Of a DNA stretch of 32,000 nt, positions 16,831 to 29,520 are shown one piece after another. This stretch comes from Candidatus Jordarchaeales archaeon (GTDB lineage Archaea > Asgardarchaeota > Jordiarchaeia > Jordiarchaeales > Freyrarchaeaceae): positions 441,424 through 473,423 of the forward strand of contig JAWAHN010000002.1 in assembly GCA_038889235.1 (NCBI GenBank), in the 5' to 3' direction. The notes below the pieces were generated by a model, which was not told the DNA's origin, did not search any database, and saw nothing but the letters and a program-made list of their open reading frames with translations. Made by a program: the position numbers and the translations under genes. Position 1 is the stretch's first letter. Each line of letters opens with the position of its first letter.

Positions 16831-17367
16831 TCATCCCTTCCCTCCAACCACCTCCTTTGGAATCTTCACTTCCAATATCCCATTTCTATAGCTTATCTTA
16901 AGCTCATCTGGCTTCACACACGCCGGCAACTTTATACGCTTGTAATACCTGTCCCCAGCCCTCACTTCAAGCTCATCCCTAGTACAGTTAACGGATATTT
17001 CGCTCTCATCAACCCCTGGGACCTCAACCGCAACTATCACTTCACCCTCCCCCTCAATAACATCAACAAGAGGCTCCCTAACCTCCTTTATCATCGAAGA
17101 AGGCTCAGAAGACGGCTGAAAGTTACCAAACTGTCTAACCTCAGGCTTACCATCCGGCCCAATCCTCACACTCCAACCCCACACTATCGGACCAGTAACT
17201 TCAGTTCCATCGGGAAGCCGCACCCTCGGCAACTCCCTCATCAACCTGTCAAACTCAGCGAAAGGCTCCCTGAAAAACCTCTCAACCATCTCCTCAAACT
17301 CCTCAAACCAGCCACCAAAAAAGTCATCAAAAGGCAACCGCCTCTTCCTTCTACGCTCCCAACCCAT
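16831..17367 (-). CDS. hsp20: Archaeal small heat-shock protein Hsp20
   Basis: GPIVWGWSVRIGPDGKPEVRQFGN, EPLVDVIE, VEVPGV, YRNGILEVKI; start at ATG 17367 (the longer ORF upstream is low-complexity sequence). Confidence 0.92.
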   Translation of the reverse strand: MGWERRRKRRLPFDDFFGGWFEEFEEMVERFFREPFAEFDRLMRELPRVRLPDGTEVTGPIVWGWSVRIGPDGKPEVRQFGNFQPSSEPSSMIKEVREPLVDVIEGEGEVIVAVEVPGVDESEISVNCTRDELEVRAGDRYYKRIKLPACVKPDELKISYRNGILEVKIPKEVVGGKG

Positions 17368-17410
17368 ACACACCACCACAACAAACCCAAGAAATACAAA
17401 GCAAAAAACA

Positions 17411-17426
17411 CATTTTAAAGTTACGC
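17411..17426 (-). promoter_or_regulatory. Putative BRE/TATA of hsp20
   Basis: Minus strand GCGTAACTTTAAAATG, about 45 bp upstream of the ATG; retains T/G residues inside an otherwise A/C-only tract. Confidence 0.5.
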
Positions 17427-17597
17427 CAACACAAACCAAAAACACAACCCACCAAAAACAACAACCCAAAACCACAAAACCCAGCAAACCAACCCCAAAC
17501 CACCCCAACCCCTCCCACTAAAAGAAACAATACAATATCTATTAACAACTATTAACAACAATAAGACACTTTTTCACCCCCTCCCGCCAAACCCCCA

Positions 17598-18899
17598 CTT
17601 TCAACTCTCTCACTAAGATTCATCTTTATGTCGAAGTACTTTCAACTCTCTCGCTGAGATTCCTTGCCCTCCTTAAGAAGCCTGGCGAACCGCCTCAGCA
17701 GCCTCCAGTAAACATATATTACAATTGCAATATAGAGTATCAGGCCAGCCAGCTCCAACCCGCAACCCCCCGCTATGCTTTCGGCAGCCTTTCAACTCTC
17801 TCGCTGAGATTCTGTGCTGTTGGTCACCGTCCTTATGGCTTCGACTGTTTCTTTCAACTCTCTCGCTGAGATTCTTAAGCCTGTGCAGCCTAGTTGCCGG
17901 TAAGCCCATCGACCTTTCAACTCTCTCGCTGAGATTCCACGTATGCTGTCCGCATAGTAAACGATGTGCTCGTCGGGCACCTTTCAACTCTCTCGCTGAG
18001 ATTCAGCCAAGCATATAGAGGCGGGAGAAGCGAAAGCTTCGTAAGCTTTCAACTCTCTCGCTGAGATTCAGAACGACATAGTGCCAGCGCTCGACGGTGT
18101 GTTTAACCTCTTTCAACTCTCTCGCTGAGATTCGTGGCCCCAAAAGGCGCCATAGTCGTTCTCAGGTACGAGACCTTTCAACTCTCTCGCTGAGATTCTG
18201 ATCCACTCGACCTCGAACTCCGCTCTAACGCCCTTGAACTTTCAACTCTCTCGCTGAGATTCACGAAGACGACTGCAAAAATAAGGGTTGCCGCGAGCAC
18301 CTTTCAACTCTCTCGCTGAGATTCGACAGCATACCCCATATATGCAACGACCACTAGAGAACTTTCATCTCTCTCGCTGAGATTCTTATTTTATTAGTTT
18401 TTGTTGGTGGTGTTTATGAGTCTTTCAACTCTCTCGCTGAGATTCGAATCAGTGGAGCTAAGAACAAGTGCGTTCAACCCCCAACCTTTCAACTCTCTCG
18501 CTGAGATTCTCTCCAACCACTCCTTTTCTCCACATTATGTATATTATGTCTTTCAACTCTCTCGCTGAGATTCTGGAAAAAGAGGGGGTTGTCGAGTACA
18601 GGGAGGCGCAGAGGAGGATTCTTTCAACTCTCTCGCTGAGATTCTTGTTTTACCGCATCTATGTTCCAACGCACACCAGCGTGCTTTCAACTCTCTCGCT
18701 GAGATTCTTAACAGCTGGCAAGCGTATGTTAACGGCTGGATCAGCAGCTCTTTCAACTCTCTCGCTGAGATTCTCACCTCGAACACGAAATCATAATGCG
18801 AACATCTATATTCTTTCAACTCTCTCGCTGAGATTCGCAGTATTTTGCAGAGAGAGCAGTTCCTGTTGTTGATCACTTTCAACTCTCTCGCTGAGATTC
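17598..18899 (-). CRISPR. CRISPR array: 20 repeats of 24 bp (GAATCTCAGCGAGAGAGTTGAAAG on minus strand), 19 spacers
   Basis: Repeat starts on + strand: 17598 (degenerate, 2 G>A), 17639, 17789, 17851, 17914, 17981, 18046, 18110, 18175, 18239, 18301, 18362 (one A>T), 18422, 18486, 18550, 18621, 18684, 18750, 18813, 18876. Spacers are 36-47 nt except 17 nt and 126 nt at the trailer. Orientation from the 3' GAAAG end and the degenerate trailer repeat. Confidence 0.99.
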
Positions 18900-27912: not shown

Positions 27913-28572
27913 GTGGCGGGAAGAGCTATAATTGTGACTTTGGGTTTCGACGAGAAATTCGTTATAAGGGCGATCATGCGTAACGCCCCGTTAAAGGAAG
28001 ATAAGGTCATAGTTTTCGTTCCATCTTTCAAGGATGAAAGGGCTGAGAGAGCACTCAGCTCACTTAAAGAGTTCTGCGCTAAGATAGGAGAGTTGCGTCT
28101 CGAGGAACAGGAGGTTCCCGTCACCGATGTCGAAGGCGCTATAGCGAAGGTGTACCGTGTCCTCAGCCGCGAATTGATGGATGGGAGGAAGCTCTGCTTC
28201 AACTTGAGCGGCGGGATGAGAGTGTTGATACTTGAAGTGTTGGCGGCCGCCCTCGCAGTTCTAAGAAGCATGCCCGAAACGAAGGTCGAGGTTGAACTGG
28301 AAAACCTTATGGGGCGGGTCGAGTTTAGTTTAAACCACTTCATGCTTTCACAGCCAAGCACACCTGAAAAAGACATTTTGTCGTGCATAGCCGAGCTCGA
28401 GGAGAAGGGGAAGGTTGCGACGCTCAACACTCTTACTTCAACGCTCAAGGAGCCGCGAACCACACTTTACCGCAAGCTCCTAGACTTAGCCGATAAAGGT
28501 TACGTGAAAGTGGAGAAGCTTGGCAGGTCCATGTTTTTCACGCTCACCAGCATTGGGAGAATATTCCTGTGA
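27913..28572 (+). CDS. csa3: Csa3 transcription regulator (CARF + wHTH)
   Basis: IVTLGFDEKFVIRA, NLSGGMR, C-terminal wHTH (RTTLYRKLLDLADKGYV...FTLT). Start GTG 27913. Confidence 0.92.
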   Translation: MAGRAIIVTLGFDEKFVIRAIMRNAPLKEDKVIVFVPSFKDERAERALSSLKEFCAKIGELRLEEQEVPVTDVEGAIAKVYRVLSRELMDGRKLCFNLSGGMRVLILEVLAAALAVLRSMPETKVEVELENLMGRVEFSLNHFMLSQPSTPEKDILSCIAELEEKGKVATLNTLTSTLKEPRTTLYRKLLDLADKGYVKVEKLGRSMFFTLTSIGRIFL

Positions 28573-28581
28573 GGGGGGTGT

Positions 28582-29520
28582 ATGAAGCGGATATTCTCCT
28601 TCACGCTCACTCTCTCCGTGGAAAGCCCGGTCTCTTTCCAGAGCTTCTCCGGCTTCGCGTCCTCCGGCCTCTTCTACAACATAGTTGCCTCGGCTGACGC
28701 CGTTTTCGCTGAGGAACTTCACCAATCGAAGAAAATCGCACCGTGGGCTGCGACGCCGATAACGCCAACGCTGAACCCGAGAAACGTCATATACAAGAAG
28801 CTAGAGGCTGACTCAGCTTTCAACGTGACTTTCACGGTGATGGATGAGAGGCTTGCCGAGAAGTTCAGGGACGCATTGTTCAACCCAAACCTGAAGCTGC
28901 ATCTGTCAACGGTTGAAGCACGCCTCCTCAACATATCAATAAAAACGCACAGCTTTTCCGAAATAGCCTCTAAAGCTGAACCCCTGCCGAGCAAGTTCGC
29001 GCTGGAATTCATAACACCAACGGCTTTTAGACGACCGGTGTACGAGTGCTGCCCGACCTGCCCGCTCTATAAAAAACACTTGGACAGCAACCAAAAAGGG
29101 GAAGGAAAACCATGCAAGCACGCCACCCCTCGAGGGGGGCAACTGGTCCCTCTTCCCCTCCCATCGCTCATGTTTAAGAACCTCGCGAGAATCTGGTCGT
29201 CTTTCTCGGACACGCCGATAGACGCGTGGGAGGCAGCCAAGTGGTCTGAAGACGCTATACTGGTAGCGGGCTTCCCCAAGGGTTTAAGAACCGTTAGGCT
29301 TTACGAACACACGACGACGAACAAGTGGATAGTGGGCTTCACGGGAACAGTGAGGTTCGCCATCGAGAGAGAAAAGTACAATAAGGAGCTGGCGAAAACA
29401 GCTCACGCACTGCTAAAAATGGCTGAGCTCACAAACGTCGGAGTAAGAAGGACAGCCGGACTAGGGATGGTAAGGTACATCCCGCCAGAGGATACAGCAG
29501 AAGAAGACGGCACGGCCTAA
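28582..29520 (+). CDS. cas6: Cas6 endoribonuclease with a Cys/His-rich insertion
   Basis: EELH..., FITPTAF, PLPLPSLMFKNL, VGFTGTVRF, Gly-rich loop NVGVRRTAGLGMV. Confidence 0.92.
   Translation: MKRIFSFTLTLSVESPVSFQSFSGFASSGLFYNIVASADAVFAEELHQSKKIAPWAATPITPTLNPRNVIYKKLEADSAFNVTFTVMDERLAEKFRDALFNPNLKLHLSTVEARLLNISIKTHSFSEIASKAEPLPSKFALEFITPTAFRRPVYECCPTCPLYKKHLDSNQKGEGKPCKHATPRGGQLVPLPLPSLMFKNLARIWSSFSDTPIDAWEAAKWSEDAILVAGFPKGLRTVRLYEHTTTNKWIVGFTGTVRFAIEREKYNKELAKTAHALLKMAELTNVGVRRTAGLGMVRYIPPEDTAEEDGTA

Follow-up and report, generated by a model that had tools for sequence, protein, structure and literature searches.

A 126-nt spacer in a type I-A CRISPR array of an Asgardarchaeota genome, probably one piece of an invader's membrane-protein gene, and its candidate routes of entry

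The array described here raises the question of how a CRISPR array can come to hold a spacer three times the usual length, and whether such a spacer is a single piece of foreign DNA. In the window (i.e., the whole stretch of 32,000 nt that was analyzed, from contig JAWAHN010000002.1 of assembly GCA_038889235.1, a Candidatus Jordarchaeales archaeon), one array was found at positions 17598–18899, with 20 copies of a 24-nt repeat. Counted inward from the degenerate terminal repeat, the spacers measure 17 nt and 126 nt and are followed by 17 regular ones of 36–47 nt (mean 39.9, SD 2.5). The 126-nt spacer is thus ~34 SD over the array mean and falls outside the 36–47 nt length ruler of canonical spacers. 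The lengths and the spacer coordinates agree with a preliminary description of this DNA, which had called the 126-nt spacer the second-oldest and given 36–47 nt for regular spacers. The array and its surroundings are laid out as follows.

17598–17621, minus strand: degenerate terminal repeat with 2 mismatches
17622–17638, minus strand: truncated terminal spacer of 17 nt
17639–17662, minus strand: perfect repeat that flanks the 126-nt spacer toward the trailer and gives an in-frame TGA (17644–17642)
17663–17788, minus strand: oversized spacer (pseudo-spacer) of 126 nt, a coding-like and very probably contiguous fragment
17789–17812, minus strand: perfect repeat that flanks the 126-nt spacer toward the leader
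17813–18899, minus strand: remaining array with 17 regular spacers of 36–47 nt
18900–19050, minus strand: leader, from the array to cas4
19051–21889, minus strand: adaptation module csa1, cas1, cas2 and cas4, with intact ORFs and a Cas4 with four Cys
21976–29520, plus strand: type I-A effector genes csa5, cas7 (csa2), cas5a, a 410-aa ORF, cas3', cas3'', csa3 and cas6

Since the leader and cas4 are located to the right of the array, the crRNA corresponds to the minus strand. The type I-A adaptation gene set (csa1, cas1, cas2, cas4) is present, as is the effector set (csa5, cas7/csa2, cas5a, split cas3'/cas3'' and cas6), with a csa5 match under the curated cut-off. The 410-aa ORF, which had no Pfam or NCBIfam match, lies where cas8a would be expected, and its position suggests a putative cas8a. 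The 17-nt terminal spacer, under half the normal length, is kept in every assembly with this array. A strong strand skew (A/C versus G/T) was also observed at 17341–17600 and 18900–19600, and it flips across the array.

Arrays are error-prone in metagenome assemblies such as this one, and an assembly artefact was therefore considered. Separately assembled contigs were found via close variants of the neighboring Hsp20 and Cas4 proteins, and the Logan contigs of runs SRR21619497 and SRR27730019 contain both the 126-nt and the 17-nt spacer without a single difference. The SRR21619497 contig matches the window at 100% identity and may represent its source run, while SRR27730019 represents another strain, in which there is one additional spacer, the newest spacer is a different one and the flank shows small differences. 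Misassembly is very unlikely because two separately assembled runs, one of them from another strain, carry the identical spacer, and an artefact is barely credible. A comparison of arrays in related genomes had been proposed in the preliminary description; it showed that the spacer is shared with another strain and absent from other conspecific assemblies, whose array is a different one and from which most cas genes are gone. The spacer is thus inherited but, given conspecific populations without it or without the whole array, dispensable.

Some of these assemblies show further rearrangements. At a contig end of GCA_038894675, a single repeat and the leader directly adjoin the final 8 nt of the 17-nt spacer, and this empty or collapsed array adjoins intact cas4, cas2 and cas1. 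It could be ancestral or else collapsed; if it is ancestral, the 126-nt spacer was the first one gained. In GCA_038822405 (L149:3115-4709, with L150 and L153 alike), a different array with the same repeat is fused straight into csa3 at window position 27959; window positions 17483–27958, comprising the array, the adaptation genes and most effector genes, are missing, and cas6 is called as two pieces. In this array, two 24-nt repeats enclose a segment of 1,035 nt (L149:3335-4369) with a 142-aa ORF that has an internal duplication. Both ends of the segment are bounded by the other CRISPR repeat of this genome (36–37 nt) and a duplicated T/G-rich stretch, making the segment a hybrid of two array types. 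The second CRISPR type, with two variants of its 36–37 nt repeat, is found in the genome at the starts of contigs C1 and C2, at the end of C3 and on C5. Among its spacers, one overlaps with a spacer in the L149 array (24/25 nt) and another partly matches the newest spacer in the window (18837–18875, 26/31), so the two CRISPR types both seem to target related invaders.

The minus-strand translation of the 126-nt spacer runs end to end exactly as the preliminary description gave it, with a short loop, ~16 hydrophobic residues, an aromatic belt and an Arg/Lys-rich run. The plus strand in the same register is stop-free too. A stop-free frame was found in 42% of shuffled sequences, in 59–77% of simulated spacer fusions and in 89% of 126-mers from the host, and since 42–89% of null sequences have such a frame, as does the plus strand, an open frame alone is weak evidence. 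A stop-free frame combined with a hydrophobic stretch and a K/R cluster was far rarer (0.02% of shuffles, 0.2% of fused triplets and 0.4% of host fragments), yet this pattern separates contiguous from fused models only about twofold. The RNA fold of the 126 nt was no better than that of shuffles (z 0.31), and Rfam gave no match. Several further features were located in or next to the spacer.

17642–17758, minus strand: possible ORF of 38 aa that would begin at a TTG within the spacer, end at the stop of the adjoining repeat and have a G-run before it (putative)
17715–17734, no strand assigned: near-perfect AT-rich palindrome of 20 bp (9/10 pairs), with its center within 1 nt of the spacer midpoint
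17695–17704, plus strand: copy one of a direct repeat (9/10), TCAGCAGCCT
17781–17790, plus strand: copy two of the direct repeat (9/10), TCGGCAGCCT, which spans the spacer-repeat junction 86 nt from copy one
17663–17702, minus strand: putative original 40-nt spacer, which applies only under the recombination model discussed below

The 9/10 palindrome occurs in 0.4–1% of controls and a centered one in ~0.01%. A direct repeat like that at the junction was found in 0.7% of null sequences at a junction and in 2.2% anywhere, and cutting out the 86 nt between its two copies leaves exactly 40 nt, compared with an array mean of 39.9.

Whether the 126 nt represent one piece or several was assessed by codon phase with a three-periodic Markov model, for which host genes served as the training set. 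Each third of the spacer favors the same minus frame, and one piece is preferred to three fused spacers with a ln Bayes factor of 3.9. Contiguous fragments typically give such a value; 0–0.25% of fused simulations attain it. The corresponding density odds are ~10–25 to 1 and are approximate because the model was trained on the host and not the invader. With the AT-rich center left out, the two flanks each pick this same frame (posteriors 0.91 and 0.99). These results suggest that the 126 nt are very probably one contiguous piece. The gene behind it would most likely be a membrane-protein gene of an invader. A spacer reaching across a gene junction (a stop, then a TTG start) is disfavored by codon phase. 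Fusion of three ordinary spacers through clean loss of two repeats is improbable. Its appeal is that 126 nt is about 3 x 42 and that long spacers are usually caused by lost or degenerate repeats (PMC4869251); against it, two exact deletions would be required, one coding frame runs through all thirds, the separate pieces were found in no strain examined and, as had been noted before, there is no repeat remnant inside the spacer (the best repeat match is 11/24, below the shuffle mode of 12). The sum of 17 + 24 + 126 nt is 167 nt, as expected for three spacers and two repeats, a weak coincidence estimated at roughly 5–15%. The earlier reading of one membrane-gene piece as opposed to fused spacers is thus supported by codon phase, the lack of a remnant and the independent assemblies, while the source gene was not found in searches.

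No source for the spacer was found by blastn and tblastn against phages and plasmids (the check that had been recommended for it), by exact patterns in viral contigs, by peptide-based scans of viral, metagenome and genome contigs or by protein searches with both strands. ESM Atlas, PHROGs and NCBIfam, as well as 400 genomes of the phylum, also gave no source match, and the host genome holds no second copy. Three types of hits were set aside: an 18-bp exact-pattern match in viral contigs, rejected as chance; a single low-identity match to a repetitive protein in a phmmer search of 1.8 billion representatives, also judged to be chance; and weak sister-family matches, which represent another membrane gene read off-frame. 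Queries with two neighboring spacers found no virus. The absence of a host copy, together with what spacers usually are, points to an invader as the origin. As a separate observation, spacers of other hot-spring archaea (L062:540 and L105:183 regions) match two places in the host genome (C1:1022634-1022665 and C3:27042-27074) at 85–88% over 32–33 nt, possibly indicating shared mobile elements; the host itself probably lives in a hot spring.

Arrays with related repeats contributed 1,022 spacers, all of them 59 nt or shorter except for one gap artefact. A further survey drew on 251 genomes of the Thermoprotei, the class around a Desulfurococcaceae genome, and counted ~13,000 regular repeat pairs; its loci were the first 30 among the matches listed per search, and spacers of 91–122 nt lay outside it. 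Among the matches listed, the remnant-free long spacers measured 62 nt (with an internal duplication), 66, 75 and 78 nt, in addition to one of 142 nt. The 78-, 75- and 66-nt spacers (L173, L177 and L182, from three Thermoprotei genomes) each have near-perfect repeats and an open frame. The 142-nt spacer (L216:1500 region, genome G556) is composed of a 42-nt spacer and a MITE-like insert that has imperfect inverted ends and shows a target duplication of 11 bp. The 126-nt spacer is therefore rare, with the 142-nt MITE-like insertion the sole comparable case among ~1,000 related and the listed Thermoprotei spacers. A centered palindrome like that of the 126-nt spacer was found in none of the other long spacers.

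Untrimmed capture by Cas1-Cas2 is the best explanation for the entry of the 126 nt, although it can be put forward only tentatively. The spacer would have entered once, early in the history of the array in this lineage, as a mis-sized acquisition in which the prespacer was left untrimmed to ~40 bp by Cas4/Csa1 and host nucleases, Cas1-Cas2 joined both prespacer ends and the repeat was duplicated perfectly. Speculatively, the central AT-rich palindrome could have served as a hinge, or as a protected site, through which the two ends, ~63 bp from the center, came together. Cas6 would be expected to cut both repeats and release an RNA of ~150 nt, of which perhaps only the first 35–45 nt past the 5' handle would guide Cascade, the tail being trimmed or left over. 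Type I-A processing by Cas6 yields crRNAs with an 8-nt 5' handle. The perfect repeats on both sides of the spacer count for capture by Cas1-Cas2, and over-long capture seems to happen, since the remnant-free spacers of 66–78 nt in Thermoprotei have no junction microhomology. In type I-A, spacer length is set imperfectly by Cas4 and Csa1 (10.1101/486738), and in a type I-A reconstitution PAM-less ends were integrated largely untrimmed (PMC5815122). Trailer-end spacers would seldom be deleted, and the persistence of this spacer is explained by the reported stability of trailer spacers (PMC8047081). Against this explanation, searches gave no source or PAM; 126 bp amounts to three lengths of the Cas1-Cas2 ruler, and the acquisition studies compared report no such new length; Cas4 and Csa1 seem intact and the other 17 lengths look normal; and the junction microhomology (null 0.7%) fits recombination better. 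The centered palindrome, moreover, was spotted post hoc.

The preliminary description held that the length implies integration of an untrimmed prespacer. This does not follow, since spacer-target recombination yields the same product and the junction microhomology fits it; an untrimmed prespacer is plausible but not implied. In that alternative, which is possible if rather unlikely, a normal 40-nt spacer (17663–17702) paired with its own protospacer, and a single crossover or template switch was resolved at a microhomology 86 nt further along the invader that resembles the spacer's own end. The product would be a repeat, 40 nt, an 86-nt flank and a repeat, the fragment still being one contiguous gene piece. 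The 9/10 direct repeat across the leader-side junction and the exactly 40 nt left without the 86 nt support this alternative, as does the frame, whose continuity at the 40/86 boundary is favored ~5 to 1. The route was also proposed for the pseudo-spacer SiL-E1 (PMC3718332), and spacer-target recombination in bacteria has been reviewed (PMC8616872). However, the direct repeat was noticed post hoc, and the model needs just 7/8 nt of it, the two further matches being chance under it. The three other clean long spacers lack this junction signature (5/10), the 40-nt form was found in no strain examined and the centered palindrome is left unexplained. The PAM of Sulfolobus type I-A systems is CCN; the core considered here has GAG at the PAM position on the crRNA strand, although CCN may not be the PAM of this system. 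At least one of the two features, palindrome or junction repeat, is probably due to chance. Insertion of a small mobile element where spacer and repeat meet, with duplication of a 10-bp target, is quite improbable: the direct repeat does take in 2 nt of the CRISPR repeat, the 142-nt spacer is a precedent with its MITE-like insert and target duplication, and a 132-bp MITE in an array has been published (PMC4390879), but the copies differ by one base, terminal inverted repeats and a second genomic copy are absent and frame continuity speaks against it ~5 to 1. It is very improbable that the slot owes its retention to a 38-aa membrane peptide encoded by the array transcript (start at the TTG at 17758, stop codon within the repeat). 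A start codon, an upstream G-run and an in-frame stop are present; on the other side, codons before the TTG prefer the same frame, as they would in an internal piece of a gene, the spacer or the entire array is missing from conspecific populations, searches gave no homologues and Cas6 cleavage, given the usual 8-nt handle, would part the stop codon from the ORF.

Whether oversized inserts enter by faulty trimming or by spacer-target recombination was undecided in 2013. The 126-nt case carries one clue for each route, and a single event without a found source decides neither. If entry by Cas1-Cas2 is true, ends separated by 126 bp are within reach of a type I-A integrase, a point of relevance to the ruler model as well as to DNA-writing tools. 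Should recombination be true, arrays would have a second route by which to gain invader DNA, and the locus would provide sequence-level evidence of array rewriting and of giant spacers without sizing by Cas1-Cas2.

Compared with known systems, the gene set (Cas1, Cas2, Cas4, Csa1), the perfect repeat duplication and the regular spacers of 36–47 nt resemble canonical type I-A acquisition, in studies of which modal lengths were near 39–41 bp (10.1101/486738; PMC5815122), as opposed to 126 nt here. MITE/IS insertions (PMC4390879; L216) share an apparent spacer on the 130–140 nt scale with a flanking direct repeat. Of the hallmarks of a MITE, neither terminal inverted repeats, an exact target duplication nor other genomic copies were found here; the 126-nt spacer has an imperfect duplication and a continuous frame. 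In locus F of S. solfataricus, an array contains an 899-bp pNOB8-like fragment (PMC4390879), which likewise is foreign DNA between two repeats of a crenarchaeal-type array (24–25 nt) but is seven times longer and has a partial plasmid match. The closest parallel is SiL-E1, a pseudo-spacer of ~2 kb with five ORFs and a pING1-like plasmid as source, in CRISPR_2 of Sulfolobus islandicus LAL14/1, for which faulty processing or recombination with an existing spacer was proposed (Jaubert et al. 2013, PMC3718332). Both have oversized DNA between two perfect repeats, normal units after it and the same two candidate routes, and the structure of a SiL-E1-type pseudo-spacer, i.e., perfect repeats with normal units following and no remnant, is found here in both respects. 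Collinearity with a mobile element was sought in searches that returned no source, and contiguity was judged from codon phase alone. The present case differs in its length of 126 nt, its content (part of one gene, with searches returning no source), its host among the Asgardarchaeota and its candidate junction microhomology. The two Cas4-family genes, despite which the preliminary description saw the length arise, are indeed there, but oversized inserts in type I-A arrays bearing Cas4 and Csa1 were already published (PMC4390879, PMC3718332). The 126-nt spacer is a short new example of the pseudo-spacers already published for Sulfolobales, at 899 bp and 2 kb.
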